Shown piece by piece: positions 18,389 to 40,890 of a DNA stretch of 64,000 nt. The stretch lies in NCBI RefSeq assembly GCF_057098645.1, contig NZ_CM169472.1. The stretch is one strand, 5' to 3'. A model generated the notes under the pieces. It did no database searches and was not told the DNA's origin. It was given only the letters and a program-made list of their open reading frames with translations. The position numbers and the translations under genes were made by a program. Each line of letters opens with the position of its first letter. Within the stretch, counting starts at the first letter, position 1.

Positions 18389-18390
18389 GA

Positions 18391-18795: not shown

Positions 18796-18854
18796 TGCGT
18801 ATTCCGCTCTATTCGATCACGGATTGGCATCGAAGTCCGATCAGCGATTCGCAT
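18796..18854. repeat. IS21-family istB-proximal terminal repeat block
   Basis: TCGATCACGGATTGGCAT (18813-18830) and CCGATCAGCGATTCGCAT (18837-18854) are inverted copies of the ATGCCAA-N-TGATCGA motif found at the other end. Confidence 0.7.
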
Positions 18855-18894
18855 CCATTCGATCAACCGGGAACTTAACTTTTTCTACCGCTTT

Positions 18895-19650: not shown

Positions 19651-19666
19651 ACTGTTGTTCCTTCTG

Positions 19667-21202
19667 TCAGTGGTAGTAGCCCGGACCACGCAGGTTTTCA
19701 TGCTCTGAAGCATATGCCGGATGTTGTTCGCCCTGGCGGGATAATGGAAGCTCCAGGTTCTCCCGATGGTGACGCAGCAGATTGTCGATAAAGCGTCTGT
19801 CAGGGGCGTTATAGTGCAGGGCAACGTAACAGGCCTTTTCCAGCCGTTCCGGGCCGTATTTTTTCTGAAGTGCCAGCAGCCCCAGAACTGCACGATAAGC
19901 CAGTTCCGGATGGGGTTTTGCCTTCAGCATGGATTCAACCACCCGGCCTGTGGACGGGCCCGTACGTTTTCCCTGCTCGATCAGGCGTTCCGGTGTCCAT
20001 GTCCCGTGCTGCCGGTGGCGCTCTGGCATGTGAAGCGGATTGGTTGTGTGTTTATATTCATGTGTGCTGCGCGGATGTTGCGCCACACACTGCCCCTTGT
20101 GCCAGAGCTGTACCACCGACTGCCCCGCCTTCAGTGACAGACGCTGACCGACCAGTTCGTGTGGAACGGAGTACCAGTGACGGGCATATTCAACGTGGTA
20201 GTCAGGGCCAACCTTCACAGCTTTGTATTCCGTGTATTCATAAGGTGCCAGAGGCAGCGGAGAGAGTGCTGGCGCATCCAGTATGCGGAAGCGTTCTGCA
20301 CGGGTTTGATTGCCGTACCCCTTCATTGGCCGGTTATTCATGTCTGTCAGTAACTCCCTAAGGCGCGCATTCAGCGCCCTGAGCGTGTGGAAGGTTTCAT
20401 TACGGATGCGGGCAAGAAGCCATCGTTCAACGATGAGGACGCCGTTTTCTGCTTTTGGTTTATCTTTAGGTTTGCGTGGTCGGGCCGGGATGATAACCGT
20501 GCCATAGTGCTCAGCCAGTGCCTGATAACTGTCGTTGATGACAGGCTCATATCGATCGGCCTTTTTCACTGCGCTTCTGAGGTTATCGGGGATGAGCAGC
20601 TTCGGTACGCCGCCCAGGAAGGTCAGGCAACGGCTGTGGGCATTTAACCATGACATCATGTCCTGACCTTCGCACGCTTCAACGTAGGTATAGTTGGACG
20701 CCCCCATTACGGCCACGAAGATTGCCACGCGGCGTATCTCACCGGTGTCCGGATTAATAACAGGAACCGTAGGACCACAGAAGTCGATAAAAAGCTTTTC
20801 GCCGGCACGATGCTCCTGGCGCATGGAGAGACGTCGCGTTTTTTTCCACTCCCGGTAGCAACGGCAGAAGTGCGAGTATCCCATCGCTTTGTTACCCGCC
20901 TGTGCCTTGTATTCCATCCACAACAGTTGCCGCGTCACACCTGGTTTTCTCATTTCCGTATCGAAGTACAACATGTCAGGCATTACAAGCTCTGATGCAA
21001 AGGTGTCTTTGGGCGGAAAAATGAGTTTCTCCAGCGTGTCATGGGATATATCAGCAGGTAATGGCCATGACAGAGAAGAGGCTTTGAAGCGGGCAAGAAC
21101 CTCAAAAACGGTTGAGGCGCTGATGTGTAACGTCAGTCCGATACAACGGTTAGTCAGCTTCTTGTCGAACTTGAGCTGAAGGATCTTAAAACAGGTTTCC
21201 AT
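19667..21202 (-). CDS. istA: IS21-family transposase IstA
   Basis: The start at METCFKILQLKF is preceded by AGGAG. The product is 511 aa with an N-terminal HTH-like region and a DDE-type core. Its stop lies 16 nt before the istB start. Confidence 0.85.
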   Translation of the reverse strand: METCFKILQLKFDKKLTNRCIGLTLHISASTVFEVLARFKASSLSWPLPADISHDTLEKLIFPPKDTFASELVMPDMLYFDTEMRKPGVTRQLLWMEYKAQAGNKAMGYSHFCRCYREWKKTRRLSMRQEHRAGEKLFIDFCGPTVPVINPDTGEIRRVAIFVAVMGASNYTYVEACEGQDMMSWLNAHSRCLTFLGGVPKLLIPDNLRSAVKKADRYEPVINDSYQALAEHYGTVIIPARPRKPKDKPKAENGVLIVERWLLARIRNETFHTLRALNARLRELLTDMNNRPMKGYGNQTRAERFRILDAPALSPLPLAPYEYTEYKAVKVGPDYHVEYARHWYSVPHELVGQRLSLKAGQSVVQLWHKGQCVAQHPRSTHEYKHTTNPLHMPERHRQHGTWTPERLIEQGKRTGPSTGRVVESMLKAKPHPELAYRAVLGLLALQKKYGPERLEKACYVALHYNAPDRRFIDNLLRHHRENLELPLSRQGEQHPAYASEHENLRGPGYYH

Positions 21203-21306
21203 AGTGCTCCTGGATTTTCTCTTTCTGGACATTGACGTCTCCACTGGTTTAAACACGGCAATGGAGACTGTGGTGAAAAGAGTTAATTCCCGGAGTGACT
21301 GGCAGG

Positions 21307-21434
21307 ATGCCAATCAATGATCGGAAGCATGCCAAATCGTGATCGATTGTGATGCCAAACTGTGATCGGAGATGGATGCCAAATCATGATCGATTCGAAT
21401 GCCAAACTGCGATCGATTCAGATGCCATTTTGCA
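21307..21434. repeat. IS21-family istA-proximal terminal repeat array (six phased copies)
   Basis: ATGCCAA(A/T)NNNTGATCG(A/G)-like copies start at 21307, 21329, 21352, 21376 and 21399. A terminal half copy starts at 21422. Spacing is 22-24 bp. Confidence 0.8.
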
Positions 21435-21440
21435 CCAGAT

Positions 21441-21479
21441 ATTGAATGGCCTACGCCTCCGGTAGTTCAGGCCAGATGA
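21441..21479 (+). pseudogene. G: Tail fibre assembly chaperone gpG, 3' remnant (12 codons plus stop)
   Basis: After the target duplication the G frame continues IEWPTPPVVQAR*. This parallels the ...APDVIWPELPEA* end of the inverted paralogue. Confidence 0.75.
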
Positions 21480-22056
21480 CATCCGGCGCGGTGCTGATAT
21501 CTGTTGCAGTCACCGCGTCAATGTAATCCAGCACAGCGTTAAGCCGGGTTGTTTCTGCCTGCGTCAGCTTCCGCCCGGCCTGCAATTTCAGCTGAATCAG
21601 ACTAATGGAAGCCATAGCCGCATCAATCAGTGACTGGCGCCGTACTTCTGCCGCGTCTACTGCGGCGTTATGCTGTGCCTCAGTGTCGGTCACCCATTTC
21701 TCACCATCCCATTTATCGTATGACGTTAACGGGGCGATAGTGGTTGTATTTTCAGGGTAATCACCCGGAACTGTGATTTCTTTTGATTCTCCTGTTTCGG
21801 TGCTATAGACGATTTCACCGCGATGGTCTGGCACATATTCCCATGAGTTAAAATCTGCAGAACGGCAAATTGCATAACCAGCTTTATATGAGCCAGGAGC
21901 ATCTAAACAGGAACATGCCGGGATACCGACACCCACAGCAAGATATTCAGTTGATGTGGAAATATATTCCCGTGTTTCACCATCATAATTATAAACGGTA
22001 ATGTCTCCGGCCTTTGTGGCGATGAGTTCATTATTTAATACAGCTTTACTTATCAT
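21451..22056 (-). CDS. Alternative tail fibre assembly chaperone (G'), intact, inverted orientation
   Basis: 201-aa ORF with a C-terminus (QAETTRLNAVLDYIDAVTATDISTAPDVIWPELPEA) typical of Tfa/U-type chaperones. It is convergent with and overlaps the G 3' end. Confidence 0.85.
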   Translation of the reverse strand: MISKAVLNNELIATKAGDITVYNYDGETREYISTSTEYLAVGVGIPACSCLDAPGSYKAGYAICRSADFNSWEYVPDHRGEIVYSTETGESKEITVPGDYPENTTTIAPLTSYDKWDGEKWVTDTEAQHNAAVDAAEVRRQSLIDAAMASISLIQLKLQAGRKLTQAETTRLNAVLDYIDAVTATDISTAPDVIWPELPEA

Positions 22057-22537
22057 GCAGCCCTCACAATATAATTAAAGGCGATGTTACGGGAGCGGGT
22101 TTCAGATGCTGTGCGAACTGAGCGAGATGCGTCGAATGTCCAGTTATAAGCGCCATAACCCTCAATAATTTCGGCTTCCTTTAGACCTGTAGATAATACT
22201 TGCCCATGTTGACTAAATGGCCCTGAACTAAGTACGTCTCTAAAAAGCTGGGTACGCCCAAAAGAACCAACAATATTCTGAATTGCATCATTCTGTGCAG
22301 ATAATAAGTTACGACCAGAGTCAATCCCGCGCCCATCATCCCAGCCACGAATAAATTCACCGCGTAAATCTGGTAATTTTAATGTTGGGTAAGCCTTTGC
22401 CAGATTTGGGTACTTTTCAGAAGAAAATACTGCTCCGTTACATTTTAGCCACCCCATTGGCGGAGTGGCTGAAGGCCACGGAACAGGCACACCAACCGGT
22501 AATGCAGAGCCTTCTCCCAAACCAACGTTTAAGAAAA
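22053..22537 (-). CDS. Promoterless alternative tail-fibre C-terminal cassette (H'), expressed only after inversion
   Basis: The frame is continuous from the crossover site (FLNVGLGE) through a tail-collar-like domain (PVPWPSATPPMGWLKCNG). It is in the same codon phase as the site inside H. The ATG of the supplied ORF is not a real start. Confidence 0.8.
22512..22537 (-). repeat. 26-bp invertase crossover site (gix/cix/pix-like), right
   Basis: The plus strand reads TTCTCCCAAACCAACGTTTAAGAAAA. It is inverted relative to 17922-17947 and lies 55 nt upstream of the invertase start codon. Confidence 0.8.
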
Positions 22538-22592
22538 TGCAGAGATTATGTCTAACTGGCATCATCTCCGGTTTTTATTCAGGGGGATGCTC

Positions 22593-23186
22593 ATGCTTAT
22601 TGGCTATGTACGCGTGTCAACAAATGACCAGAACACGGAATTGCAGCGTAATGCGCTGGAGTGCGCAGGATGTGAGCTGATTTTTGAGGACAAAATCAGC
22701 GGCACGAAGTCCGACAGGCCGGGGCTGAAAAAACTGCTCAGAACATTATCGGAAGGTGACACTCTGGTTGTCTGGAAGCTGGACAGGCTGGGGCGTAGTA
22801 TGCGGCATCTGGTCATTCTGGTTGAGGAACTGCGCGAACGCGGCGTTAATTTTCGCAGCCTGACGGATGCTATTGATACCAGCACGCCGATGGGGCGTTT
22901 TTTCTTTCATGTGATGGGTGCCCTGGCTGAAATGGAGCGAGAACTCATTGTCGAGCGGACACGCGCCGGACTGGAAGCGGCCAGAGCCAAAGGTCGTATT
23001 GGTGGCAGACGACCGAAACTCACCGCGAGTGAGTGGGAGCAGGCCGGGCGTTTGCTGGCTGCAGGGGAGTCACGTCAACGCGTGGCACTGATTTTTGATA
23101 TTGGTCTGTCCACGCTCTATAAAAAATTTCCCTCATCAGCGACAAAGAATAAATTGTGTCATCCCTTAGCCAACCGGGACAAATAG
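22593..23186 (+). CDS. Serine DNA invertase (Hin/Gin/Pin/Cin family)
   Basis: The start at MLIGYVRVSTNDQNTELQRNAL is preceded by AGGGGG. The product is 197 aa and closely resembles e14 Pin and Mu Gin as I recall them, including the catalytic Ser in YVRVST and the C-terminal HTH. Confidence 0.92.
   Translation: MLIGYVRVSTNDQNTELQRNALECAGCELIFEDKISGTKSDRPGLKKLLRTLSEGDTLVVWKLDRLGRSMRHLVILVEELRERGVNFRSLTDAIDTSTPMGRFFFHVMGALAEMERELIVERTRAGLEAARAKGRIGGRRPKLTASEWEQAGRLLAAGESRQRVALIFDIGLSTLYKKFPSSATKNKLCHPLANRDK
23155..23172. promoter_or_regulatory. Late-promoter partial dyad TGT-N12-cCA upstream of FI
   Basis: TGTGTCATCCCTTAGCCA lies 74-91 nt upstream of the FI ATG and has the same pattern as 6880-6897. 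Confidence 0.4.
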
Positions 23187-25451: not shown

Positions 25452-27891
25452 CAATGTAAAATTACAGGTATTGCTCAGGGCTGTTGACCAGGCATCCCGC
25501 CCGTTTAAATCCATCCGCACAGCGAGCAAATCGCTGTCGGGGGATATCCGGGAAACACAAAAATCACTGCGCGAGCTGAACGGTCAGGCGTCCCGTATTG
25601 AGGGATTTCGCAAGACCAGTGCACAGCTTGCCGTGACTGGTCATGCACTTGAAAAGGCACGGCAGGAAGCCGAAGCCCTTGCCACACAGTTTAAAAACAC
25701 CGAACGTCCGACCCGTGCTCAGGCGAAAGTGCTGGAATCCGCAAAGCGTGCGGCGGAGGACTTACAGGCGAAATATAACCGCCTGACGGATTCTGTTAAA
25801 CGCCAGCAGCGGGAACTGGCCGCTGTGGGAATTAATACCCGCAATCTTGCACATGATGAGCAGGGACTGAAAAACCGTATCAGTGAAACCACCGCACAGC
25901 TTAACCGGCAGCGTGATGCGCTGGCGCGTGTCAGTGCACAACAGGCAAAACTTAACGCAGTAAAACAGCGTTATCAGGCCGGAAAAGAACTGGCCGGAAA
26001 TATGGCCTCGGTGGGCGCTGCCGGTGTGGGGATTGCGGCGGCGGGAACGATGGCCGGAGTTAAGTTGCTGATGCCCGGTTATGAGTTTGCGCAGAAAAAC
26101 TCAGAATTGCAGGCCGTGCTCGGAGTGGCAAAAGACTCCGCCGAAATGACCGCACTACGCAAACAGGCGCGCCAGCTCGGTGACAACACCGCCGCCTCGG
26201 CGGATGATGCGGCCGGTGCACAGATAATCATCGCGAAAGCGGGTGGGGATGTTGATGCCATTCAGGCGGCAACGCCGGTCACGCTGAATATGGCGCTGGC
26301 GAACCGCCGCACGATGGAAGAAAACGCCGCCCTGCTGATGGGGATGAAATCCGCCTTTCAGCTTTCAAACGATAAGGTCGCTCATATCGGGGATGTTCTC
26401 TCCATGACGATGAACAAAACCGCCGCCGATTTTGACGGCATGAGCGATGCGCTGACCTATGCCGCACCTGTGGCAAAAAATGCCGGTGTCAGCATTGAAG
26501 AAACCGCCGCAATGGTCGGGGCGCTGCATGATGCAAAAATCACAGGCTCAATGGCGGGGACGGGAAGCCGTGCCGTGTTAAGTCGCCTGCAGGCACCGAC
26601 GGGAAAAGCATGGGATGCACTCAAAGAGCTTGGCGTGAAAACCTCAGACAGTAAGGGGAATACCCGACCAGTATTTACCATTCTGAAAGAAATGCAGGCC
26701 ATCTTTGAGAAAAACCGGCTCGGTACTGCCCAGCAGGCTGAATACATGAAAACTATTTTCGGGGAGGAGGCCAGCTCAGCCGCCGCCGTGCTGATGACTG
26801 CCGCCTCAACCGGAAAGCTGGACAAACTGACCGCCACACTGAAAGCCTCAGACGGTAAAACGGAAGAGCTGGTTAAAATCATGCAGGACAACCTCGGCGG
26901 TGACTTTAAGGAGTTTCAGTCCGCTTATGAGGCGGTGGGGACTGACCTGTTTGACCAGCAGGAAGGCACACTGCGTAAGCTCACGCAGACGGCCACAAAG
27001 TATGTGTTAAAACTCGACGGCTGGATCCAGAAAAACAAATCACTGGCGTCAACCATCGGCCTCATTGTCGGTGGCGCACTGGCGCTTACTGGCATCATCG
27101 GTGCAATTGGTCTTGTAGCCTGGCCGGTTATCACCGGCATTAATGCCATCATCGCGGCAGCAGGCGCAATGGGGGCAATCTTCACGACGGTTGGCAGTGC
27201 TGTTATGACCGCCATCGGGGCGATTAGCTGGCCGGTTGTGGCTGTGGTGGCCGCTATTGTCGCCGGGGCGTTGCTTATCCGTAAATACTGGGAGCCTGTC
27301 AGCGCATTCTTTGGCGGTGTGGTGGAAGGGCTGAAAGCGGCATTTGCGCCGGTGGGGGAACTGTTCACGCCACTTAAGCCGGTGTTTGACTGGCTGGGCG
27401 AAAAGTTACAGGCCGCGTGGCAGTGGTTTAAAAACCTGATTGCCCCGGTCAAAGCCACCCAGGACACCCTGAACCGTTGCCGTGACACGGGCGTCATGTT
27501 CGGGCAGGCACTGGCTGACGCGCTGATGCTGCCGCTTAATGCGTTCAACAAACTGCGCAGCGGTATTGACTGGGTACTGGAAAAACTCGGCGTCATCAAC
27601 AAAGAGTCAGGCACGCTTGACCAGACCGCCGCCAGAACTCATGCCGCCACGTATGGCACCGGTGGTTATATTCCGGCGACCAGCTCTTATGCTGGCTATC
27701 AGGCTTATCAGCCAGTTACGGCACCGGCTGGCCGCTCTTATGTGGACCAGAGTAAAAACGAATATCACATCAACCTGACGGGCGGTACTGCGCCGGGGAC
27801 ACAGCTCGACCGCCAGTTACAGGATGCGCTCGAAAAATACGAGCGGGATAAACGTGCGCGCGCCCGTGCCAGCATGATGCATGACGGTTAA
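25444..27891 (+). CDS. T: Tail tape measure protein gpT
   Basis: 815-aa ORF with a hydrophobic Gly/Ala-rich central segment, of the P2 T length. Confidence 0.93.
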   Translation: MSNNVKLQVLLRAVDQASRPFKSIRTASKSLSGDIRETQKSLRELNGQASRIEGFRKTSAQLAVTGHALEKARQEAEALATQFKNTERPTRAQAKVLESAKRAAEDLQAKYNRLTDSVKRQQRELAAVGINTRNLAHDEQGLKNRISETTAQLNRQRDALARVSAQQAKLNAVKQRYQAGKELAGNMASVGAAGVGIAAAGTMAGVKLLMPGYEFAQKNSELQAVLGVAKDSAEMTALRKQARQLGDNTAASADDAAGAQIIIAKAGGDVDAIQAATPVTLNMALANRRTMEENAALLMGMKSAFQLSNDKVAHIGDVLSMTMNKTAADFDGMSDALTYAAPVAKNAGVSIEETAAMVGALHDAKITGSMAGTGSRAVLSRLQAPTGKAWDALKELGVKTSDSKGNTRPVFTILKEMQAIFEKNRLGTAQQAEYMKTIFGEEASSAAAVLMTAASTGKLDKLTATLKASDGKTEELVKIMQDNLGGDFKEFQSAYEAVGTDLFDQQEGTLRKLTQTATKYVLKLDGWIQKNKSLASTIGLIVGGALALTGIIGAIGLVAWPVITGINAIIAAAGAMGAIFTTVGSAVMTAIGAISWPVVAVVAAIVAGALLIRKYWEPVSAFFGGVVEGLKAAFAPVGELFTPLKPVFDWLGEKLQAAWQWFKNLIAPVKATQDTLNRCRDTGVMFGQALADALMLPLNAFNKLRSGIDWVLEKLGVINKESGTLDQTAARTHAATYGTGGYIPATSSYAGYQAYQPVTAPAGRSYVDQSKNEYHINLTGGTAPGTQLDRQLQDALEKYERDKRARARASMMHDG

Positions 27892-27905
27892 GGAGGTGAC
27901 GAAAA

Positions 27906-28385
27906 ATGATGCTCGCGTTAGGTATGTTTGTTTTTATGCGCCAGACGCTGCCACACCAGACCATGCAGCGTGAATCAGATTATCGCTGGCCGTCAAATTC
28001 CCGTATCGGTAAACGGGATGCCTTTCAGTTTCTCGGTGTGGGTGAGGAAAACATTACGCTTGCCGGTGTGCTTTATCCCGAACTGACCGGCGGCAAGCTG
28101 ACGATGACCACGCTCAGGCTGATGGCAGAGGAAGGTCGGGCGTGGCCGTTGCTGGATGGCACCGGCATGATTTACGGCATGTATGTCATCAGCAGGGTGA
28201 GTGAAACAGGGAGTATTTTCTTTGCAGACGGCACACCCCGAAAAATTGATTTTACGCTGTCGCTCACCCGCGTGGATGAATCACTGGCCGCGCTTTATGG
28301 CGATATCGGTAAACAGGCGGAATCGCTCATCGGTAAGGCTGGCAGTATGGCGACTAAATTCACGGGGATGACGGGGGCGGGATAA
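27906..28385 (+). CDS. U: Tail protein gpU
   Basis: 159-aa ORF starting MMLALGMFVFMRQTLPHQT. Confidence 0.9.
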   Translation: MMLALGMFVFMRQTLPHQTMQRESDYRWPSNSRIGKRDAFQFLGVGEENITLAGVLYPELTGGKLTMTTLRLMAEEGRAWPLLDGTGMIYGMYVISRVSETGSIFFADGTPRKIDFTLSLTRVDESLAALYGDIGKQAESLIGKAGSMATKFTGMTGAG

Positions 28386-29548
28386 TGCTGGATGCGCTGA
28401 CATTTGATGCAGGCAGTACGCTGACGCCGGATTACATGCTGATGCTCGACAGCAGGGATATTACCGGCAATATCAGCGACCGTCTGATGAGCATGACCCT
28501 GACGGATAACCGGGGCTTTGAGGCTGACCAGCTTGATATTGAACTGAACGACGCCGACGGGCAGGTAGGGCTGCCGGTTCGTGGCGCTGTCCTGACGGTG
28601 TATATCGGCTGGAAAGGTTTTGCCCTGGTATGCAAAGGGAAATTTACCGTTGATGAGGTTGAACACCGGGGCGCGCCGGATGTGGTCACCATCCGCGCCC
28701 GGAGTGCAGATTTTCGCGGGACGCTCAATTCCCGCCGGGAAGGCTCCTGGCATGACACCACGCTCGGTGCGATTGTTGAGGCGATTGCCTCCCGTAACAG
28801 GCTGGAAGCCAGTGTCGCTCCGTCACTGGCCGGAATTAAAATCCCGCACATCGATCAGTCGCAGGAGTCTGATGCGAAATTCCTGACCCGTCTAGCAGAA
28901 CGCAACGGCGGTGAGGTGTCGGTAAAAATGGGAAAACTGTTGTTTCTCAAAGCGGGGCAGGGGGTGACGGCCAGCGGTAAAAAAATCCCGCAGATTACCA
29001 TCACCCGCAGCGACGGCGACCGTCATCATTTTGCGATTGCTGACCGTGGAGCCTACACCGGCGTAACGGCAAAGTGGTTACACACCAAAGACCCGAAGCC
29101 ACAAAAGCAGAAGGTAAAACTGAAACGCAAAAAGAAAGAGAAACACCTGCGCGCACTGGAGCACCCGAAAGCGAAACCGGTCACGCAGAAGAAAGCGCCA
29201 AAAGTACCGGAAGCGCGCGAAGGTGAATACATGGCCGGTGAGGCTGACAATGTTTTTGCCCTGACCACGGTATATGCCACGAAAGCGCAGGCCATGCGCG
29301 CCGCTCAGGCGAAGTGGGACAAACTGCAACGGGGCGTCGCGGAGTTCTCCATCAGTCTGGCTACCGGTCGGGCAGATATTTACACGGAAACGCCGGTCAA
29401 AGTGTCAGGCTTTAAGCGCGTCATAGACGAGCAGGACTGGACAATCACTAAGGTGACACACTTTCTGAATAATAGCGGCTTCACGACGTCCTTGGAGCTT
29501 GAGGTCAGGCTTTCTGATGTGGAGTACGAAACAGAAGATGATGAGTGA
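28385..29548 (+). CDS. D: Tail/late control protein gpD
   Basis: 387-aa ORF with a Lys-rich insert (KPQKQKVKLKRKKKEKH), in the P2 D position. Confidence 0.9.
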   Translation: MLDALTFDAGSTLTPDYMLMLDSRDITGNISDRLMSMTLTDNRGFEADQLDIELNDADGQVGLPVRGAVLTVYIGWKGFALVCKGKFTVDEVEHRGAPDVVTIRARSADFRGTLNSRREGSWHDTTLGAIVEAIASRNRLEASVAPSLAGIKIPHIDQSQESDAKFLTRLAERNGGEVSVKMGKLLFLKAGQGVTASGKKIPQITITRSDGDRHHFAIADRGAYTGVTAKWLHTKDPKPQKQKVKLKRKKKEKHLRALEHPKAKPVTQKKAPKVPEAREGEYMAGEADNVFALTTVYATKAQAMRAAQAKWDKLQRGVAEFSISLATGRADIYTETPVKVSGFKRVIDEQDWTITKVTHFLNNSGFTTSLELEVRLSDVEYETEDDE

Positions 29549-29629
29549 TGTCTTTTGTTTATCTGTTTGTTTTATAAGGATAAATTAACTAAAATGGCAC
29601 CATCAACAAAACCGGAAGAGGTGCTCGCG

Positions 29630-29848
29630 ATGTTTCATTGTCCTTTATGCCAGCATGCCGCACATGCGCGTACAAGTCGCTATATCACTGACACGACAAA
29701 AGAGCGTTATCACCAGTGCCAGAACGTGAATTGCAGCGCCACGTTCATCACTTATGAGTCGGTACAGCGATACATCGTGAAGCCGGGAGAAGTCCACGCC
29801 GTAAGGCCGCACCCGTTGCCGTCAGGGCAGCAAATTATGTGGATGTAA
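29630..29848 (+). CDS. ogr: Late transcription activator Ogr (zinc finger)
   Basis: The start at MFHCPLCQHAAHARTSRYITDTTKERYHQCQNVNCSATF gives 72 aa, matching P2 Ogr. The upstream extension in the ORF track is rejected. Confidence 0.93.
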   Translation: MFHCPLCQHAAHARTSRYITDTTKERYHQCQNVNCSATFITYESVQRYIVKPGEVHAVRPHPLPSGQQIMWM

Positions 29849-29860
29849 TTACAAACAGAA

Positions 29861-29887
29861 AGCCCCTCAGTCGAGGGGCTTTTTTTG
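29861..29887 (+). terminator. Rho-independent terminator after ogr
   Basis: AGCCCCTC-AGTC-GAGGGGCT hairpin followed by TTTTTTT. Confidence 0.8.
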
Positions 29888-29961
29888 TCGATGTGGTCAA
29901 TGTGTGGACGTGACCAGAAATAAATCCTTTTATTTCATGCAATTAGATATCAAAAAATGTC

Positions 29962-29976
29962 ACCAATAACTGACAT
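29962..29976 (-). other. pflA: Prophage-host junction (attR side): pflA start codon plus four codons (MSVIG), then phage DNA
   Basis: The reverse complement reads GGAGAAACACCGCA ATG TCA GTT ATT GGT and then GAC ATT TTT TGA. K-12 PflA starts MSVIGRIHSFESCG, so homology stops after codon 5. Confidence 0.7.
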
Positions 29977-30099
29977 TGCGGTGTTTCTCCAGATGTGGCC
30001 CATCTGAGGCCGTGTTGGTGCGCAGCTCGAAGGCTACGTCGAGTCTGTTTTGGCAGTCACCTTAAAGTATAGATAGCTGACAAAAAAGGCTCTCGTGCT

Positions 30100-30125
30100 A
30101 AAAAAGGCCCCACTTTCGTGGAGCC
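30100..30125 (-). terminator. pflB rho-independent terminator
   Basis: The minus strand carries a GGCTCCAC-GAAA-GTGGGGCC hairpin followed by TTTTTT, ~45 nt past the pflB stop. Confidence 0.7.
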
Positions 30126-30167
30126 TTTATTGTACGCTTTTTACTGTACGATTTCAGTCAAATCTAA

Positions 30168-32450
<2,283 letters not shown>

Positions 32451-32504
32451 GTAACACCTACCTTCTTAAGTGGATTTTTTATTTACTGCGTACTTCGACA
32501 ACCA

Positions 32505-33362
32505 TTAATGGTGATCGTTTTCACGCAGGTAAATGACCCAGTATGTCAACCCAACCAACAAACCACCGCCGATAATATTACCGATCGTAACCGGAATCAG
32601 GTTATCAGTGATGAAGTTCATCACGGTCAGGTGAGAAAAATTTTCCGGTGCAGAACCGACAGCGGTCCAGAATTCCGGAGATGCGAAGTCGCGGATTACA
32701 ATACCCATCGGGATCATAAACATGTTTGCGATACTGTGCTCAAAACCGCTGGCAACAAACATCGCGACCGGCAGCACCATGATAAACGCTTTGTCCATCA
32801 GGCTGCGGCCAGAATAACTCATCCATACTGCCAGACATACCATCAGGTTTGCCAGGATACCAAGGCAGACGGCCTCAATAAAAGTATGGTGCACTTTGTG
32901 GTCGGCGGTTTGTAGGACGTTTAGTCCCCATTGACCATTTGCGGTCATATACTCGCCGGAAAGCCACATTAAAAGTACAAACAGCAGTGCGCCGACCAGG
33001 TTGCCAAAATAGACATTTAGCCAGTTTTTAGCCAACTGACCCCAGGTGATGCGCCCACTCGCCTTAGCAACAACAATCAACACTGTGGAAGTAAAGAGAT
33101 CGGCTCCGCAGACAACACAAAGAATCAGCCCCAGAGAGAAGCAAATGCCGCCAACCAGTTTTGCCATGCCGAAGGGCATTGTGCCTGTGCCAGTGGTTGC
33201 TGTGATATAGAAGACGAATGCGATTGAGATGAAAACACCGGCGGTAATCGCCAGATAGAAAGTCTTAAGCGGATGTTTCGTTGCTTTATAGACACCCGCC
33301 TCTTCGGCCACTTTGGCCATTGCAGCAGGAAGTAAAAGATCAAAAGGGTTGTCAGCTTTCAC
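32505..33362 (-). CDS. focA: Formate channel FocA
   Basis: The GTG start (VKADNPFDLLLPAAMAKVAEEAG) gives 285 aa as in K-12 FocA. The 398-aa ORF-track version extends into the AT-rich promoter region. Confidence 0.93.
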   Translation of the reverse strand: MKADNPFDLLLPAAMAKVAEEAGVYKATKHPLKTFYLAITAGVFISIAFVFYITATTGTGTMPFGMAKLVGGICFSLGLILCVVCGADLFTSTVLIVVAKASGRITWGQLAKNWLNVYFGNLVGALLFVLLMWLSGEYMTANGQWGLNVLQTADHKVHHTFIEAVCLGILANLMVCLAVWMSYSGRSLMDKAFIMVLPVAMFVASGFEHSIANMFMIPMGIVIRDFASPEFWTAVGSAPENFSHLTVMNFITDNLIPVTIGNIIGGGLLVGLTYWVIYLRENDHH

Positions 33363-33422
33363 ACTAACTCTCTCTTTATTAAGTCGGCGACGAGATACTA
33401 ACAAAGCATTATAGATGAGAAA

Positions 33423-33436
33423 TTGATATAGATCAT
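33423..33436. promoter_or_regulatory. FNR-box-like palindrome in the focA-pflB promoter region
   Basis: TTGATATAGATCAT matches 9/10 of TTGAT-N4-ATCAA, ~67 nt upstream of the focA GTG. The operon is known to be FNR-activated. Confidence 0.45.
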
Positions 33437-33767
33437 ATCTCGCCTGGCTTATAGGCCCGTAACTCGCATGGTTTTTATGCAAATACGGAGTAAATATTTG
33501 ATTATCCAAATAAAAATAAATTTTAAAAATTAACAAATGAGTTGAATTTTTTCCGCATCCTCCGCTAAAACAGTTAATTAAAAGGGAGCACCAGGCGAAT
33601 AAAGTAACAATATCGATCGTATTTATTAAATACAAATTACCGATATTTAACCTTATAATTACAATTATTTTATTAATGCAAATATATGTAAAGCGGGGCA
33701 TTAAAAAAACGCCCCGTAATATAACTCAGACGAATCATTAAGCCTACATTGCGTAGGCTATTTGATT

Positions 33768-35528
33768 TTATTTTGCCCAGAATGCTGCTTTGGCGCGCTG
33801 CAGCTTTTCGTAGGCCTTCAACAGCGACTGATGTGCAGCAAACGCGTGCAGATCGCTATCTACTGGTTGCAAGCCATAAAACGCCGCTTCGCCGCTCATT
33901 GCCGCACTAGCGGCTTCCACGGCATCTGCGCCGTACATGCGAACAAACGCATTCAGATATTGCAGCGGCTGGCGATCTTCTTCCTGCGCCAGTAATAACA
34001 ACGTTTGCAGGCAGCGATAATAGTTGGCGCGTTCCGGGCTGAATGCCGATGAGTTAAACTCCATCGTCCATTCGGTCCAGACCAGAGCCTGTTCCAGATC
34101 GCCACCAGCCAGCGCCAGCATGGCTTTTAATTCACCGATACGCAGGGTGTACCAACCGTTATCCGACCCGGTCGCCAGACCCAACAGCTCACGCACGCGG
34201 GTAAAGTCATCAAAACCTTCTTCATCCAGTTGCTCGATGAGGTTCAGGTAATCTTCTTTTTCCCACTCGCTGCCTGGTAGCGAAAGAATCGTTTCACGTA
34301 AATGGCTGCCCATACTGTTATTCGCGAGCCACAGATCTTCAGCCGGATAAATATCGGACATGCCAGGCACGATAATACGGCAAGCATAAACGCCCAGATG
34401 CTCGTAATCGGCAATATAAACTTCTTTATCTTCTTTGTTGAAGATAGCCATCAGCGTAGCAAACTCTTCTTCCGTGGTGCCGGAGAAATTCCAGTCCACA
34501 AACGGATAATCGGCATCCTGCTTGAACAGGTCCCAGGAGATTAAACCGCTGGAATCGATAAAGTGCGTTTCGAGGTTGGTATGTTCAGCGACTTCTTCAT
34601 CATCGAAGGTTGGCGGAGTAAACACATCCAAATCTTTCAGGCCACGACCTTGCAGCAGCTCGGTCACGGTACGTTCCAGTGCTACGCCAAAATCAGGATG
34701 CGCACCGAAAGAGGCAAAGCAGGTGCCGTTAGCAGGATTAAACAGTACCACGCAAATCACCGGATACTGGCCGCCAAGGGAACCATCATATGCGAAGATC
34801 GGGAAACCTTCTGCTTCCAGTGTTTCGATCGCTTCAACCACCGCTGGGTAACGCGCCAGCACGTCTGCCGGGATTTCCGGCAAGCTGATGCTTTCAGCAA
34901 TAATGCGGTTTTTCACGTAGCGTTCGAAAACTTCGGACAACCCCTGAACGCGTGCTTCGTTGCGGGTATTGCCAGCGGACATACCGTTAGAAACGTACAG
35001 GTTACCAATGATATTCATCGGAATATAAACGGTCTGATTGTCGGACTGGCGCGTAAACGGCAGACCGCAAATACCACGATCTTCGTTACCGGATTGTAGG
35101 TCAATCAGCATACTGCCGGTCAATTCATTCTCCGGATCGTAAAATGCGCGCAGACGGTCATCGAGCAGCCCTTCTGGCACATCGTCATTTTCGGTCAGTG
35201 GGAACCATTTTTCGTTGGGATAATGCACAAATGGACCGTTGGCGATGGTTTCGCCCAGCCAGAAATCAGCAAAAAAGTAGTTGGTTGAGAGACGCTCGAA
35301 ATATTCACCGAGTGCAGAAGCCAGCGCCGCTTTCTTGGTTGCGCCTTTACCGTTGGTAAAACACAGTGCGCACTCTTTGTCGCGAATATGTACAGACCAG
35401 ACGTTAGGCACGGGATTCAGCCAGGAGGCCTCTTCAATCTGAAAGCCGAGGTCTGAAAGTTTTTGCTGGAAGCGAGCGATGGAATCTTCCAGTGCGGCAT
35501 CTTTGCCGGGGATAAATGTTTGCGTCAT
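33768..35528 (-). CDS. ycaO: YcaO (ribosomal protein S12 methylthiotransferase accessory factor; YcaO-domain ATPase)
   Basis: The start at MTQTFIPGKDAALEDSIARFQQKL gives 586 aa as in K-12. Confidence 0.93.
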   Translation of the reverse strand: MTQTFIPGKDAALEDSIARFQQKLSDLGFQIEEASWLNPVPNVWSVHIRDKECALCFTNGKGATKKAALASALGEYFERLSTNYFFADFWLGETIANGPFVHYPNEKWFPLTENDDVPEGLLDDRLRAFYDPENELTGSMLIDLQSGNEDRGICGLPFTRQSDNQTVYIPMNIIGNLYVSNGMSAGNTRNEARVQGLSEVFERYVKNRIIAESISLPEIPADVLARYPAVVEAIETLEAEGFPIFAYDGSLGGQYPVICVVLFNPANGTCFASFGAHPDFGVALERTVTELLQGRGLKDLDVFTPPTFDDEEVAEHTNLETHFIDSSGLISWDLFKQDADYPFVDWNFSGTTEEEFATLMAIFNKEDKEVYIADYEHLGVYACRIIVPGMSDIYPAEDLWLANNSMGSHLRETILSLPGSEWEKEDYLNLIEQLDEEGFDDFTRVRELLGLATGSDNGWYTLRIGELKAMLALAGGDLEQALVWTEWTMEFNSSAFSPERANYYRCLQTLLLLAQEEDRQPLQYLNAFVRMYGADAVEAASAAMSGEAAFYGLQPVDSDLHAFAAHQSLLKAYEKLQRAKAAFWAK

Positions 35529-35657
35529 GAAAATCACTTTAGTCGTACGGAAAGCGCGCAATAATACGGGTTTTATCTCAAAGGCGCTATCACCGCCGCC
35601 ATGCCGATGAACTGTTGACTATGCTTTTAGCGGATAAACCACGTTAAGAGCATAAAA

Positions 35658-36350
35658 ATGAAGGTGTTCGATCTCCACCGTATGGCATTTGATAAAGTGC
35701 CTTTTGATTTCCTTGGCGAAGTTGCACTACGTAGTCTGTATACCTTTGTACTGGTTTTTTTGTTCCTCAAAATGACCGGAAGACGCGGAGTGCGGCAGAT
35801 GTCGCTGTTTGAAGTGTTAATCATTCTGACGCTGGGGTCAGCGGCGGGAGATGTGGCGTTTTATGATGATGTGCCGATGGTCCCGGTACTTATCGTCTTT
35901 ATCACTCTGGCGTTGTTATACCGCCTGGTAATGTGGTTGATGGCACACAGTGAAAAACTGGAAGATCTTCTGGAAGGTAAGCCGGTTGTCATTATTGAAG
36001 ATGGCGAGCTGGCCTGGTCGAAACTCAATAACTCCAACATGACGGAATTTGAGTTCTTTATGGAGCTACGATTGCGCGGTGTAGAGCAGTTGGGGCAAGT
36101 ACGTCTGGCGATTCTCGAAACCAACGGGCAAATCAGTGTCTATTTCTTTGAAGATGACAAGGTGAAACCGGGTTTACTTATTTTACCCAGTGATTGTACT
36201 CAGCGTTACAAAGTGGTGCCGGAGTCGGCGGACTATGCCTGCATCCGTTGTAGTGAAATCATTCATATGAACGCGGGGGAAAAACAATTATGTCCGCGCT
36301 GTGCAAATCCAGAATGGACGAAGGCAAGTCGGGCTAAACGGGTGACCTGA
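35658..36350 (+). CDS. ycaP: Inner-membrane protein YcaP (DUF421 family)
   Basis: 230-aa ORF, in K-12 synteny. Confidence 0.9.
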   Translation: MKVFDLHRMAFDKVPFDFLGEVALRSLYTFVLVFLFLKMTGRRGVRQMSLFEVLIILTLGSAAGDVAFYDDVPMVPVLIVFITLALLYRLVMWLMAHSEKLEDLLEGKPVVIIEDGELAWSKLNNSNMTEFEFFMELRLRGVEQLGQVRLAILETNGQISVYFFEDDKVKPGLLILPSDCTQRYKVVPESADYACIRCSEIIHMNAGEKQLCPRCANPEWTKASRAKRVT

Positions 36351-36548
36351 CAGCAAAAATATCGGTTTTTTGGTAATAATCCGAGAGATTCTGTTGTGTG
36401 ACGCGTGCCGCATTTTTGCCCTCAACGGTTTTACCCATTGCGATGCGTGTCACTGAATGATAAAACCGATAGCCACAGGAATAACATATTACCCGCGGTC
36501 GCAATCGATTGACTGGGGGTTAATGGCAACGCAACGTGGTGAGGGGAA

Positions 36549-37637
36549 ATGGCTCAAATCTTCAATTTTAGTTCTGGTCCGGCAATGCTACCGGCAGAGG
36601 TGCTTAAACAGGCTCAACAGGAACTGCGTGACTGGAACGGTCTTGGTACGTCGGTGATGGAAGTGAGTCACCGTGGCAAAGAGTTCATTCAGGTTGCAGA
36701 GGAAGCCGAGAAGGATTTTCGCGATCTTCTTAATGTCCCCTCCAACTACAAGGTATTATTCTGCCATGGCGGTGGTCGCGGTCAGTTTGCTGCGGTACCG
36801 CTGAATATTCTCGGTGATAAAACCACCGCAGATTATGTTGATGCCGGTTACTGGGCGGCAAGTGCCATTAAAGAAGCGAAAAAATACTGCACGCCTAATG
36901 TCTTTGACGCCAAAGTGACTGTTGATGGTCTGCGCGCGGTTAAGCCAATGCGTGAATGGCAACTCTCTGATAATGCTGCTTATATGCATTACTGCCCGAA
37001 TGAAACCATCGACGGTATCGCCATCGACGAAACGCCAGACTTCGGCAAAGATGTGGTGGTTGCCGCCGACTTCTCTTCAACCATTCTTTCCCGTCCGATT
37101 GACGTCAGCCGTTATGGTGTAATTTACGCTGGCGCGCAGAAAAATATCGGCCCGGCAGGCCTGACAATCGTCATCGTCCGTGAAGATTTGCTGGGCAAAG
37201 CGAATGTCGCGTGTCCGTCGATTCTGGATTATTCCATCCTCAACGATAATGGCTCCATGTTTAACACGCCGCCGACATTTGCCTGGTATCTGTCTGGTCT
37301 GGTCTTTAAATGGCTGAAAGCGAACGGCGGTGTAGCTGAAATGGATAAAATCAATCAGCAAAAAGCAGAACTGCTATATGGGGTGATTGATAACAGCGAT
37401 TTCTACCGCAATGACGTGGCGAAAGCTAACCGTTCGCGGATGAACGTGCCGTTCCAGTTGGCGGACAGTGCGCTTGACAAATTGTTCCTTGAAGAGTCTT
37501 TTGCTGCAGGCCTTCATGCACTGAAAGGTCACCGTGTGGTCGGCGGAATGCGCGCGTCTATTTATAATGCCATGCCGCTGGAAGGCGTTAAAGCGCTGAC
37601 AGACTTCATGGTTGAGTTCGAACGCCGTCACGGTTAA
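36549..37637 (+). CDS. serC: Phosphoserine aminotransferase
   Basis: 362 aa starting [26 protein letters not shown]. Confidence 0.98.
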
Positions 37638-37656
37638 TGCCGAAATTTTGCTTAAT

Positions 37657-37685
37657 CCCCACAGCCAGCCTGTGGGGTTTTTATT
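37657..37685 (+). terminator. Hairpin plus T-run between serC and aroA (partial terminator/attenuator)
   Basis: CCCCACA-GCCAGCC-TGTGGGG followed by TTTTTATTT. serC and aroA are known to be co-transcribed, so termination is presumably leaky. Confidence 0.45.
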
Positions 37686-37707
37686 TCTGTTGTAGAGAGT
37701 TGAGTTC

Positions 37708-38991
37708 ATGGAATCCCTGACGTTACAACCCATCGCTCGTGTCGATGGCACTATTAATCTGCCCGGTTCCAAGAGCGTTTCTAACCGCGCTTTATTGCTG
37801 GCGGCATTAGCACACGGCAAAACAGTATTAACCAATCTGCTGGATAGCGATGACGTGCGCCATATGCTGAATGCATTAACAGCGTTAGGGGTAAGCTATA
37901 CGCTTTCAGCCGATCGTACACGTTGCGAAATTATCGGTAACGGCGGTCCATTACACGCAGAAGGTGCCCTGGAGTTGTTCCTCGGTAACGCCGGAACGGC
38001 AATGCGTCCGCTGGCGGCAGCTCTTTGTCTGGGTAGCAATGATATTGTGCTGACCGGTGAGCCGCGTATGAAAGAGCGCCCAATTGGTCATCTGGTGGAT
38101 GCGCTGCGCCTGGGCGGGGCGAAGATCATTTACCTGGAACAAGAAAATTATCCGCCGTTGCGTTTACAGGGCGGCTTTACTGGCGGCAACGTTGACGTTG
38201 ATGGCTCCGTTTCCAGCCAATTCCTCACCGCACTGTTAATGACTGCGCCTCTTGCGCCGGAAGATACGGTGATTCGTATTAAAGGCGATCTGGTTTCTAA
38301 ACCTTATATCGACATCACACTCAATCTGATGAAGACGTTTGGTGTTGAAATTGAAAATCAGCACTATCAACAATTTGTCGTAAAAGGCGGGCAGTCTTAT
38401 CAGTCTCCGGGTACTTATTTGGTCGAAGGCGATGCATCTTCGGCTTCTTACTTTCTGGCAGCAGCAGCAATCAAAGGCGGCACTGTAAAAGTGACCGGTA
38501 TTGGACGTAACAGTATGCAGGGTGATATTCGCTTTGCTGATGTGCTGGAAAAAATGGGCGCGACCATTTGCTGGGGCGATGATTATATTTCCTGCACGCG
38601 TGGTGAACTGAACGCTATTGATATGGATATGAACCATATTCCTGATGCGGCGATGACCATTGCCACGGCGGCGTTATTTGCAAAAGGCACCACCACGCTG
38701 CGCAATATCTATAACTGGCGTGTTAAAGAAACCGATCGCCTGTTTGCGATGGCAACAGAACTGCGTAAAGTCGGTGCGGAAGTAGAAGAGGGGCACGATT
38801 ACATTCGTATCACTCCACCGGAAAAACTGAACTTTGCCGAGATCGCGACATACAATGATCACCGGATGGCGATGTGTTTCTCGCTGGTGGCGTTGTCAGA
38901 TACACCAGTGACGATTCTTGATCCCAAATGTACGGCCAAAACATTTCCGGATTATTTCGAGCAGCTGGCGCGGATTAGCCAGGCAGCCTGA
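37708..38991 (+). CDS. aroA: EPSP synthase (3-phosphoshikimate 1-carboxyvinyltransferase)
   Basis: 427 aa starting [35 protein letters not shown]. Confidence 0.98.
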
Positions 38992-39033
38992 ATGAATAAC
39001 GTCCAATAAATAGCCAAAACTTTCTTTATCAAA

Positions 39034-39062
39034 ACGTCGGCACATTGCCGGCGTTTTTTTTC
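39034..39062 (+). terminator. aroA rho-independent terminator
   Basis: ACGTCGGCA-CATT-GCCGGCGT hairpin followed by a T8 run. Confidence 0.7.
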
Positions 39063-39159
39063 GGACCTTGTGAGTCATTTTGATTAATGGTAGCGTCAGT
39101 TGTCAATGTAAGTTGTTGATACATAATATTTATATATGATTAATCAACGGATGATTCAC

Positions 39160-39924
39160 ATGAAGAATACTAAATTACTGCTGGCGATTGTGACCTCTGC
39201 AGCATTACTGACGGGGTGTCAAAATACCCACGGTATTGATACCAATATGGCTATCAGCTCCGGTTTAAATGCCTATAAAGCAGCAACATTAAGCGATGCC
39301 GATGCAAAAGCGATTGCCAATCAGGGCTGTGCCGAAATGGACAGCGGCAATCAAGTCGCAAGTAAATCCAGCAAGTACGGTAAACGTCTGGCAAAAATCG
39401 CCAAAGCATTGGGTAACAATATTAATGGCACGCCGGTCAACTATAAGGTTTATATGACCAGCGACGTCAACGCATGGGCGATGGCGAACGGCTGTGTTCG
39501 TGTTTACAGTGGCCTGATGGACATGATGAACGATAACGAAATTGAAGGCGTTCTGGGCCATGAACTGGGCCACGTCGCGTTGGGTCACTCGCTGGCTGAA
39601 ATGAAAGCTTCTTATGCGATCGTTGCCGCACGCGATGCCATTTCAGCTACCAGCGGTGTGGCTTCCCAGCTTTCCCGCTCACAATTGGGTGATATCGCAG
39701 AAGGCGCTATCAATGCGAAATACTCCCGCGATAAAGAGTCCGAAGCAGATGATTTCTCCTTTGATCTGTTGAAGAAACGTGGCATCAGCACCCAGGGGCT
39801 GGTTGGCAGCTTTGAAAAACTGGCTAGCCTGGATGGCGGTCGCACCCAGTCCATGTTTGACTCTCACCCACCATCAACAGAGCGTGCGCAACACATCCGT
39901 GATCGTATCGCCTCTGGTAAGTAA
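39160..39924 (+). CDS. ycaL: M48-family metalloprotease lipoprotein YcaL
   Basis: The start at MKNTKLLLAIVTSAALLTGC carries a lipobox and gives 254 aa. A HELGH zinc motif is present. Confidence 0.92.
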   Translation: MKNTKLLLAIVTSAALLTGCQNTHGIDTNMAISSGLNAYKAATLSDADAKAIANQGCAEMDSGNQVASKSSKYGKRLAKIAKALGNNINGTPVNYKVYMTSDVNAWAMANGCVRVYSGLMDMMNDNEIEGVLGHELGHVALGHSLAEMKASYAIVAARDAISATSGVASQLSRSQLGDIAEGAINAKYSRDKESEADDFSFDLLKKRGISTQGLVGSFEKLASLDGGRTQSMFDSHPPSTERAQHIRDRIASGK

Positions 39925-40096
39925 ATCATTGTCATCTTTCGGGCTGGTCTTCTGCCAGCCCGCTATAATTGCGCAATAAATCCCCATCTGAATACAGACA
40001 AAACTGGTTTTTGCACACAACGTTAACGATTTGTGGCGTCGGCGCGTATAATGCGCGCGGTTATGTTAACGGTACGCCTGTTTTAAGGAGATAAAG

Positions 40097-40780
40097 ATGA
40101 CGGCAATTGCCCCGGTTATTACCATTGATGGCCCAAGCGGTGCAGGGAAAGGCACCTTGTGTAAGGCTATGGCGGAAGCGTTGCAATGGCATCTGCTGGA
40201 TTCGGGTGCAATTTATCGCGTACTGGCATTGGCGGCATTACATCACCATGTTGATGTTGCGTCGGAAGACGCGCTGGTGCCGCTGGCATCCCATCTGGAT
40301 GTACGTTTTGTGTCAACCAATGGCAATCTGGAAGTGATCCTCGAAGGGGAAGATGTCAGCGGCGAAATTCGTACTCAGGAAGTGGCGAATGCAGCTTCAC
40401 AAGTCGCGGCATTCCCACGCGTTCGTGAAGCATTATTGCGTCGCCAACGCGCGTTTCGCGAATTACCAGGCCTGATTGCCGATGGCCGCGACATGGGAAC
40501 GGTGGTATTCCCTGATGCGCCAGTGAAAATTTTCCTTGACGCCTCCTCGGAAGAACGTGCGCATCGCCGCATGCTACAGTTGCAGGAGAAGGGCTTTAGT
40601 GTTAACTTTGAGCGCCTTTTGGCCGAGATCAAAGAACGCGACGACCGCGATCGTAACCGAGCGGTAGCGCCACTGGTTCCGGCAGCCGATGCTTTAGTGT
40701 TGGATTCCACCACCTTAAGCATTGAGCAAGTGATTGAAAAAGCGCTACAATACGCGCGCCAGAAATTGGCTCTCGCATAA
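40097..40780 (+). CDS. cmk: Cytidylate kinase
   Basis: 227 aa with the P-loop GPSGAGKGT. Confidence 0.97.
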
Positions 40781-40890
40781 GCGACCGAATTTGCAGTACC
40801 CCCGTTGCAATGGAATGACAGCGGGTATGTTAAACAACCCCATCCGGCATGGAGCCAGGTGGACGTTAAATATAAACCTGAAGATTAAAC

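Follow-up and report, generated by a model that had tools for sequence, protein, structure and literature searches.

The 64,000-nucleotide (nt) stretch of DNA analysed here (the window; one strand of contig NZ_CM169472.1, RefSeq assembly GCF_057098645.1) carries one end of a P2-like prophage that has inserted at the very beginning of pflA, the gene for the activating enzyme of pyruvate formate-lyase (PflB). Positions 29849-29976 are the attR site of this Peduovirus-type prophage, and the native upstream region of pflA, its Shine-Dalgarno sequence, the ATG and four further codons are stranded there, across the prophage from the rest of the gene. Very probably, this arrangement is the product of site-specific recombination by a tyrosine integrase into a PhiD145-type attachment site at pflA nt 3-15, with a phage-encoded leader re-fusing pflA to a new start at attL, so that activation of PflB is probably retained. 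The attachment site itself has already been described for the P2 family and its occupation is ordinary. The leader fusion and its fixation in Salmonella might be the sole new elements, and these rest on loci beyond the window.

The host side of the junction can be read directly. On the minus strand, positions 29990-29977 are GGAGAAACACCGCA, directly preceding the pflA ATG, and the first five codons of the gene, ATG TCA GTT ATT GGT, occupy 29976-29962. Phage DNA (GAC ATT TTT TGA, with the stop codon at 29952-29950) follows directly after codon 5, leaving a short orphan open reading frame (ORF) in which the native start is capped by three phage codons. An earlier note, made from the letters of the window alone, had read these codons and the bases before them correctly base for base, had followed them properly into the phage DNA beside ogr, and had given the N-terminus of K-12 PflA, MSVIGRIHSFESCG, correctly. 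Its description of 29977-30167 as the normal spacer downstream of pflB, terminator included, also stands: the spacer, which is bounded by the pflB stop codon at 30170-30168, shows a single mismatch to K-12 over its whole length, and the terminator hairpin, missed by the terminator scan, was confirmed by folding (-20.9 kcal/mol, z -5.1). The promoter of pflA was not located within this spacer, and a literature search for a constitutive pflA promoter yielded nothing usable beyond a mention of "respective native promoters". What does not stand is the proposal that integration uncouples pflA from pflB. Such uncoupling has little meaning because pflA is described as possessing a native promoter separate from that of the focA-pflB operon (PMC12338860), and because pflB is followed by a strong terminator; there was no coupling of the two genes to begin with.

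The attachment core was defined by aligning the unoccupied K-12 locus, the attR of the window and the attL of a relative, E24377A. The alignment yields a 13-nt block, GTCAGTTATTGGT, that is identical in attR, attL, attP and the unoccupied attB and that corresponds to pflA nt 3-15. This comparison of both junctions with an empty locus had been put forward in the earlier note as the way to define the core, and its result sharpens the suggestion made there that the core includes or abuts the first codons of pflA. Because the block is common to attR, attL and the unoccupied site, the alignment implies that strand exchange must take place inside it, somewhere within codons 1-5, and not exactly after codon 5.

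Integration at this site is recurrent and reciprocal, and the earlier note was right to see a site-specific event. Of 5,426 complete E. coli genomes, 402 (7.4%) carry the ogr|pflB junction (a 1.2-kb junction query with at least 80% of the query present) and 404 carry the reciprocal int|pflA junction (701-nt query), the remainder of pflA lying intact beside int at attL in those 404. An attP was reconstructed by joining the phage arm and core of the window to the int-side arm of E24377A. Its full length is found uninterrupted in 15 sequenced phage records (97.5-99.4% identity), among them Peduovirus P24A7b and P24E6b, Escherichia phages S164, D8, 11W and 12W, and Yersinia phage vB_YpM_46. The annotated P2 attP has the same layout: ogr, a terminator, an Int arm, an IHF site, the core, Cox sites and a second Int arm that overlaps the end of int. 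Integrases at 70% identity or less use other sites, for example one adjoining pyrE.

The phage side of attR is likewise that of P2 (Table 1). The window opens inside P2 replication gene A and continues through P2-type head, lysis and tail genes, some 30 kb of prophage in all, and the ORFs between 23246 and 29848 fit the late-gene order FI, FII, T, U, D, ogr, as assigned by size and position. From D to ogr, identity is 98.6% with phage P2 and 97.5-99.4% with 15 Peduovirus-type records; the annotation under the match in 30 listed genomes reads "phage late control D family protein", and ogr is annotated as ogrK or Ogr in the matching genomes and phages. Just beyond ogr stands a hairpin, the counterpart of an element annotated in P2 as terminating both ogr and the F operon. 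Judged from its fold, it would end ogr transcription on the plus strand and, on the minus strand, would stop transcripts from the orphaned pflA promoter; lying about 70 nt beyond the MSVIGDIF frame, it would also limit antisense transcription into ogr. Two direct repeats follow that fit the P2-type arm consensus tgTGGaCa (PMC3448106) and lie where the Int P arm is annotated in P2, from which we infer that they are integrase binding sites of the ogr-side attP arm. Between arm and core, an AT-rich stretch with a partial consensus match is a candidate IHF site, P2 having an annotated IHF site in the equivalent position. The int gene and attL of this genome are estimated, from the gene order in E24377A, to lie about 3.6 kb upstream of the window.

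The attachment site is not a new one, contrary to the impression recorded in the earlier note that it had not been described for the P2 family. PhiD145 and PhiD160 are listed with an integration site at MG1655 position 950293, and the Pectobacterium prophage ECA29 with an integration-site identity equal to PhiD145 (Nilsson et al. 2011, PMC3448106, Table 1). ECA29 is placed in pflA by a 2026 review citing Evans et al. 2010 (PMC13492144). The coordinates in the table of Nilsson et al. follow the pre-2013 numbering of MG1655, in that the position given there for ileY, 2783812, falls in ypjB of NC_000913.3, where ileY is found at 2785762-2785837, a shift of 1978 relative to the table. At 0.95 Mb the shift between U00096.2 and U00096.3 is presumably 777 nt. 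Adding it to 950293 gives 951070, which is nt 11 of pflA (950340-951080) and falls inside the 13-nt core. Given that shift, the published coordinate for PhiD145 and PhiD160 agrees with the site described here, and the location of ECA29 in pflA together with its PhiD145 site identity provides independent support. A literature search on pflA as a prophage site returned nothing on the E. coli junction, the only relevant items being the table of 2011 and the review of 2026. PhiECO1 of E. coli HS, which coordinates had suggested as another occupant of the pflA site, was rejected, as it sits at rcdA/ybjL.

At the opposite end of the prophage, the host start codon is exchanged for a phage-encoded one. 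In E24377A the int stop is followed by 31 nt and then by ATG AGT AAT TTA ACT AAT TGT AAT ACA ACA GAA AAT ACC GCT ACG GCG GGG GCT ACC AAG, which runs on into TCA GTT ATT GGT CGC ATT CAC... of pflA. The host ATG has been replaced by AAG, and the frame is opened by the phage ATG 20 codons upstream; RefSeq annotates the product as a 265-amino-acid PflA, which equals K-12 PflA from residue 2 on. The E. coli-type leader, MSNLTNCNTTENTATAGATK, thus ends in the lysine codon that stands where the ATG was. In the free phage the leader ATG opens a 27-codon ORF spanning attP. The attP core region, ACCAA-GTCAGTTA-TTGGT, is an inverted repeat, which may be the reason that the phage keeps AAG instead of ATG. 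An int gene encoding 331 amino acids adjoins pflA in relatives that share the attR described here, and by comparison with these the attL of this genome would read int, 31 nt, ATG-leader-AAG-TCAGTTATTGGT-CGC..., with pflA from codon 2 onward. The lysogen would then make a 265-amino-acid PflA from the phage 20-codon leader fused in frame. The expectation in the earlier note that the rest of pflA should sit at attL is borne out by the 404 E. coli genomes, the attL of this genome being outside the window. Its further expectation, that phage DNA would re-supply the core, was right as far as the core codons and the phage DNA ahead of pflA are concerned, and missed that the ATG becomes AAG and that a phage ATG and 19 more codons are added.

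This arrangement is not confined to E. coli. A scan with the integrase as query, taking one genome per species, located int-leader-pflA in E. albertii, three Scandinavium species, Pseudescherichia vulneris and Rahnella ecdela, with integrase identities of 76-100%. Further junctions were obtained from IMG/VR (Rahnella-type variants) and by looking up protein-encoding contigs (Citrobacter); IMG/VR prophage contigs are mostly trimmed exactly at the int stop and yielded few. In these relatives (16 sequences, read to the pflA stop where the contig includes it) an in-frame start supplied by the element replaces the host 5' end, only the first pflA codon is lost, and the ORF is continuous from the phage ATG to the pflA stop, which is not the pattern of a gene-disrupting insertion of the comK type. 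All 16 DNA sequences, from several genera, have exactly 20 in-frame codons between the ATG and the codon-2 position and no stop, and their peptides diverge.

Substitutions among close leader variants fall at third codon positions in 9 of 12 cases (binomial p = 0.004) and are synonymous in 8 of 12 (p = 0.003 against a 25% expectation), small counts that were tallied by hand, with the events inferred by eye in three lineages. Such an excess is the signature that a translated frame would be expected to leave. A scan with a degenerate leader pattern returned mostly chance matches. Among PflA proteins, a 265-amino-acid form from Klebsiella pneumoniae, found on 336 contigs and known as protein only, has the identical E. 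coli-type leader fused to Klebsiella PflA, so that one phage integration module is evidently at work in more than one genus. PflA sequences of 262-264 amino acids from Providencia and relatives also carry an N-terminal extension, of 16-18 residues (for example MSAEIITTTDITKTEAPATLGRIH), which bears no evident resemblance to the MSNLT leader.

It is possible to suggest how the re-fused gene would be expressed. A Pc-like promoter precedes C, and on the coding strand the terminator scan detected no terminator-like sequence separating C/int from pflA; the next such site comes after pflA. Because no such site intervenes, read-through from Pc is the likely source of pflA message, and a C-int-pflA transcript would be the simplest model. 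The P2 int transcript, as reportedly established by Yu and Haggard-Ljungquist, starts at Pc and crosses attP. On this scheme, the C-int transcript would run as far as the ogr hairpin in the free phage, and in the prophage its end would be the pflA terminator. The last ~200 nt of int may hold a further, contributing promoter: there is a weak match, TTAACC-16-CATAAT, in the last 70 nt of the gene, and an additional promoter near the int end is suggested by three decayed loci (see below) that have kept ~180-200 nt of int ahead of the leader. Promoter scans of the remnants in Salmonella and at one of the other decayed loci (L137) gave no excess over shuffled sequence and no conserved promoter. In sum, the phage would replace rather than destroy the expression signals of pflA, which is most likely re-expressed and not lost, and activation of pyruvate formate-lyase would probably be retained.

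Leader-fused pflA is also found where the prophage has decayed. The prophage (25695-41867 of locus L001) of E24377A, a reference ETEC strain of E. coli, is itself degraded: its portal gene is cut short, the greater part of its head and tail genes has been lost, and its tape-measure gene contains ISEc62, an IS21-like insertion sequence (IS). Intact genes are int, C, cox, A, D and ogr, together with the fused pflA. In Salmonella enterica LR134190.1 (4008273-4012617, locus L134) the order is pflB, terminator, an opposite-strand SopD-family gene, an int remnant and ATG-leader-pflA, with the islet between pflB and pflA at about 380-2060 of the locus. By its position between these two genes, we take the SopD-family gene to be sopD2; a literature search returned no paper linking sopD2 with pflA or pflB. 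The int remnant, detected by blastn and missed by tblastn in the one Salmonella locus examined, consists of ~180 nt of a decayed PhiD145-type int 3' end and one arm repeat (71% over 250 nt against the phage, E 2e-25). No native pflA start region is visible at the LR134190.1 locus. The islet has the appearance of a relic left by a P2-like prophage at the same attB.

Two Salmonella PflA sequences of 265 amino acids (MSNLT[N/D]CITNESVAVTADKK-PVIGRIH...) occur on at least 1,000 contigs each and are named as multispecies Salmonella PflA. Salmonella is a formate- and gas-producing fermenter; for this reason the leader-fused PflA must be made and be active there, unless an unrecognised start is used. 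As the standard PflA of Salmonella, the leader-fused form argues for a working fusion. Two enterobacterial contigs from public sequencing runs (L137, 2070-2560, and L140, 1900-2180) contain pflB or another gene, an int 3' remnant and leader-pflA and no prophage, the leader-pflA of L137 standing directly downstream of pflB and its terminator. They look like independent decay events in which the phage-derived start was retained.

These loci invite a broader reading, to which we would give about even chances: that a conserved phage 20-codon "start cassette" lying across attP gives PflA a new N-terminus and new expression signals, makes pflA dependent on transcription from the int side, and has become permanent in several enterobacterial lineages, the 265-amino-acid PflA, the int remnant and the sopD-family gene of Salmonella being relics of it. 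No paper stating this was found in a search that did not extend to the primary PhiD145 papers, and part of it may be published.

Several observations weigh against the view that a phage leader re-fuses pflA and preserves its function. The attL, int and pflA of this genome lie outside the window, and the left end has been inferred from relatives only, because no genome in the collection carries at least 80% of the first 24 kb of the prophage. The equation of 950293 with pflA nt 11 depends on a presumed 777-nt version shift. The leader ATG has a weak Shine-Dalgarno sequence, promoter-like matches near attL do not exceed those in shuffled sequence, the invariant 60-nt length of the leader could reflect attP geometry (the P2 interval holds Cox binding sites), and Table 3 of the 2026 review says that ECA29 integration "disrupted the pflA gene" (PMC13492144). 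The last four of these bear on two competing accounts. One is that integration inactivates pflA: with the native promoter, ribosome-binding site and ATG gone and the leader ORF unproductive, PflB could not be activated, and the outcome would be lysogenic conversion by disruption. The change of ATG to AAG in E. coli-type attL, the weak ribosome-binding signal, the lack of a convincing promoter and the review's statement on ECA29 would all fit. We nevertheless regard it as unlikely. A leader ORF with its ATG has been kept in 16 sequences from several genera, and recent substitutions in it are mostly at third positions (p = 0.004); pflA is intact beside the decayed prophage of E24377A and beside the int remnants of Salmonella and two other lineages; the leader form is the standard PflA (at least 1,000 contigs) of Salmonella, which makes formate and gas; and the insertion is carried by 7.4% of complete E. 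coli genomes. As for ECA29, every related junction examined supplies an in-frame phage start, for which reason the description of pflA as disrupted may be wrong or incomplete and may need to be re-examined.

The other account treats the 20-codon frame as a by-product of attP architecture, set by the spacing of the core, the Cox and IHF sites and the int-side arm, with pflA expressed, if at all, from another start. The leader does occupy the interval that holds Cox binding sites in the P2 attP, an invariant length is also expected under a spacing constraint, and such a constraint probably acts on the interval as well. Yet spacing leaves unexplained the conserved ATG, the absence of stops from at least 10 diverged variants and the third-position and synonymous excess. 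No other in-frame ATG, GTG or TTG precedes the radical-SAM motif in the E. coli-, Salmonella- and Scandinavium-type junctions, and the leader persists in Salmonella and the two other lineages despite a mostly decayed integrase gene. We rate this account slightly below even the inactivation of pflA. That the junction might be a one-off rearrangement, an assembly artefact or the work of a different mobile element would be conceivable from the window, in which a single prophage end is visible; this is effectively refuted by the identical junction in 402 genomes and its reciprocal in 404, by the contiguous attP of 15 phage records, by arm repeats that fit the P2-type consensus and by the descriptions of the site in the literature (PMC3448106, PMC13492144). 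Site-specific integration with re-fusion of pflA at attL stays the preferred reading.

Table 1. Features at the prophage-pflB junction, with positions in the window, and leader variants at related attL junctions
Feature	Position	Strand	Basis or remark
Gene D, phage late control D family (tail); penultimate prophage gene	28385-29548	+	ORF list
ogr, late-gene activator, 72 amino acids; last gene before attR	29630-29848	+	translation MFHCPLCQHAAHARTSRY...
GC-rich bidirectional terminator-like hairpin	29859-29882	both	terminator scan; folds -20.6 / -21.3 kcal/mol, z ~ -4.3
Arm-type direct repeats, putative integrase sites	29892-29910	+	TGTGGTCA 29892-29899; TGTGGACG 29903-29910
AT-rich stretch with partial IHF-consensus match, between arm and core	29948-29960	+	TATCAAAAAATGT; pattern match partial only
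Attachment core, 13 nt	29974-29962	-	alignment; pflA nt 3-15
Orphan 8-codon ORF MSVIGDIF*	29976-29950	-	native pflA start and 4 codons, then 3 phage codons and stop
Native pflB-pflA spacer, 191 nt	29977-30167	-	alignment with K-12
pflA Shine-Dalgarno GGAG	29987-29990	-	now cut off from the pflA body
pflB rho-independent terminator, hairpin and U run	~30103-30128	-	folding
pflB, pyruvate formate-lyase, 760 amino acids; first host gene beyond the prophage	30168-32450	-	ORF list; pflB annotation under matches
Leader variants			MSNLNTCNLTENTDAPGAVK; MSNLTSCNLKENTDNSEVAK; MSNLTDCISTESTTESGGHM (native ATG retained); MSNLTHCKDKENTAITAPVK; MTNLTNCNTTEIVAESEEKV; MGNLIGCIATEEIATATTVK

The remainder of the prophage has some features of its own. 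None of the 5,426 complete E. coli genomes covers at least 80% of window positions 1-24000, the best reaching 77% at 98.2% identity, and the cargo combination of this prophage is without a representative among them. An IS21-family element lies in the region 18895-23186 (istA at 19667-21313 and istB within 18895-19893, each on the minus strand), flanked by tail-fibre and tail-fibre-assembly genes of opposite orientation at 17108-18945 (plus strand) and 21451-22565 (minus strand); a Cin/Gin-type serine invertase gene at 22548-23186 (plus strand) adjoins the tail-fibre genes. This organization resembles an invertible segment for host range, into the middle of which an IS has inserted. Among the late genes, between ORFs 12714-13163 and 14615-15250 on the plus strand, the minus strand encodes a 414-amino-acid AAA-type ATPase (13264-14508) that matches the candidate defence family PDC-S59 (PADLOC, E 3e-31) and is a probable cargo or defence gene. 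A 440-amino-acid ORF at 2352-3674 (plus strand), directly after replication gene A, has no match in Pfam or PADLOC; its position after gene A is presumably the tin/old cargo hotspot of P2.

As a locus, the junction is of little importance, being a common and previously catalogued P2-family attachment site, and for annotators the 8-codon stub and the "long" 265-amino-acid PflA are normal consequences of lysogeny. It is at the same time a clear case of phage integration into the first codons of a central gene of anaerobic metabolism, in which the phage brings with it a start codon, a leader and probably a promoter. Phage-derived signals, in place of native ones, may determine how much PflA is present in about 7% of E. 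coli isolates and in every Salmonella that has the leader form.

The nearest relatives of this prophage in the literature are those that share its site. PhiD145 and PhiD160 (Karlsson et al. 2006; Mandali et al. 2010; listed in PMC3448106) resemble it in their P2-type late genes and arm repeats and in their site, 950293 in the older numbering, which would correspond to pflA nt 11 and fall within the core of the window prophage. The comparison is by published coordinate, and the cargo combination of the window prophage occurs in none of the 5,426 genomes. ECA29 of P. atrosepticum SCRI1043 (Evans et al. 2010, as cited in PMC13492144) is, according to that review, likewise a P2-like prophage in pflA. 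It differs in belonging to another genus and in being reported there as disrupting pflA, whereas the enterobacterial relatives described here re-fuse the gene to a phage start.

Outside the P2 family, comparable solutions have been found by other elements. HK022 at torS (Carey et al. 2019, PMC6814406) also has its int-proximal junction just upstream of a host gene for anaerobic metabolism, also separates that gene from its native promoter by a whole prophage, and has torS transcribed from a phage promoter between int and the junction. By analogy, it is the closest demonstrated precedent for phage-driven expression of the host gene. The differences are that HK022 is lambdoid, that its junction lies upstream of the coding sequence and leaves the protein unchanged, whereas the pflA start is replaced and 19 residues are added, and that the phage promoter has been demonstrated for torS and is inferred for pflA. 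For replacement of a 5' coding end, the closest precedent, again by analogy, is the family of dusA-specific integrases (Farrugia et al. 2015, PMC4482086), whose elements supply a new 5' end and leave the original one at the far boundary. Integrase family and target are different there. What the dusA elements bring is a homologous substitute for a structural beta-strand, whereas the leader added by the pflA phage is unrelated and the host codons from 2 onward are used again. An older parallel is the integration of phage 21 and e14 in icd, reportedly worked out by Campbell and colleagues in the early 1990s, where the attachment site is likewise said to lie in a housekeeping gene and the phage to bring a substitute gene end that keeps its function; in icd, however, it is reportedly the 3' end that is replaced, by way of a long homologous duplication.

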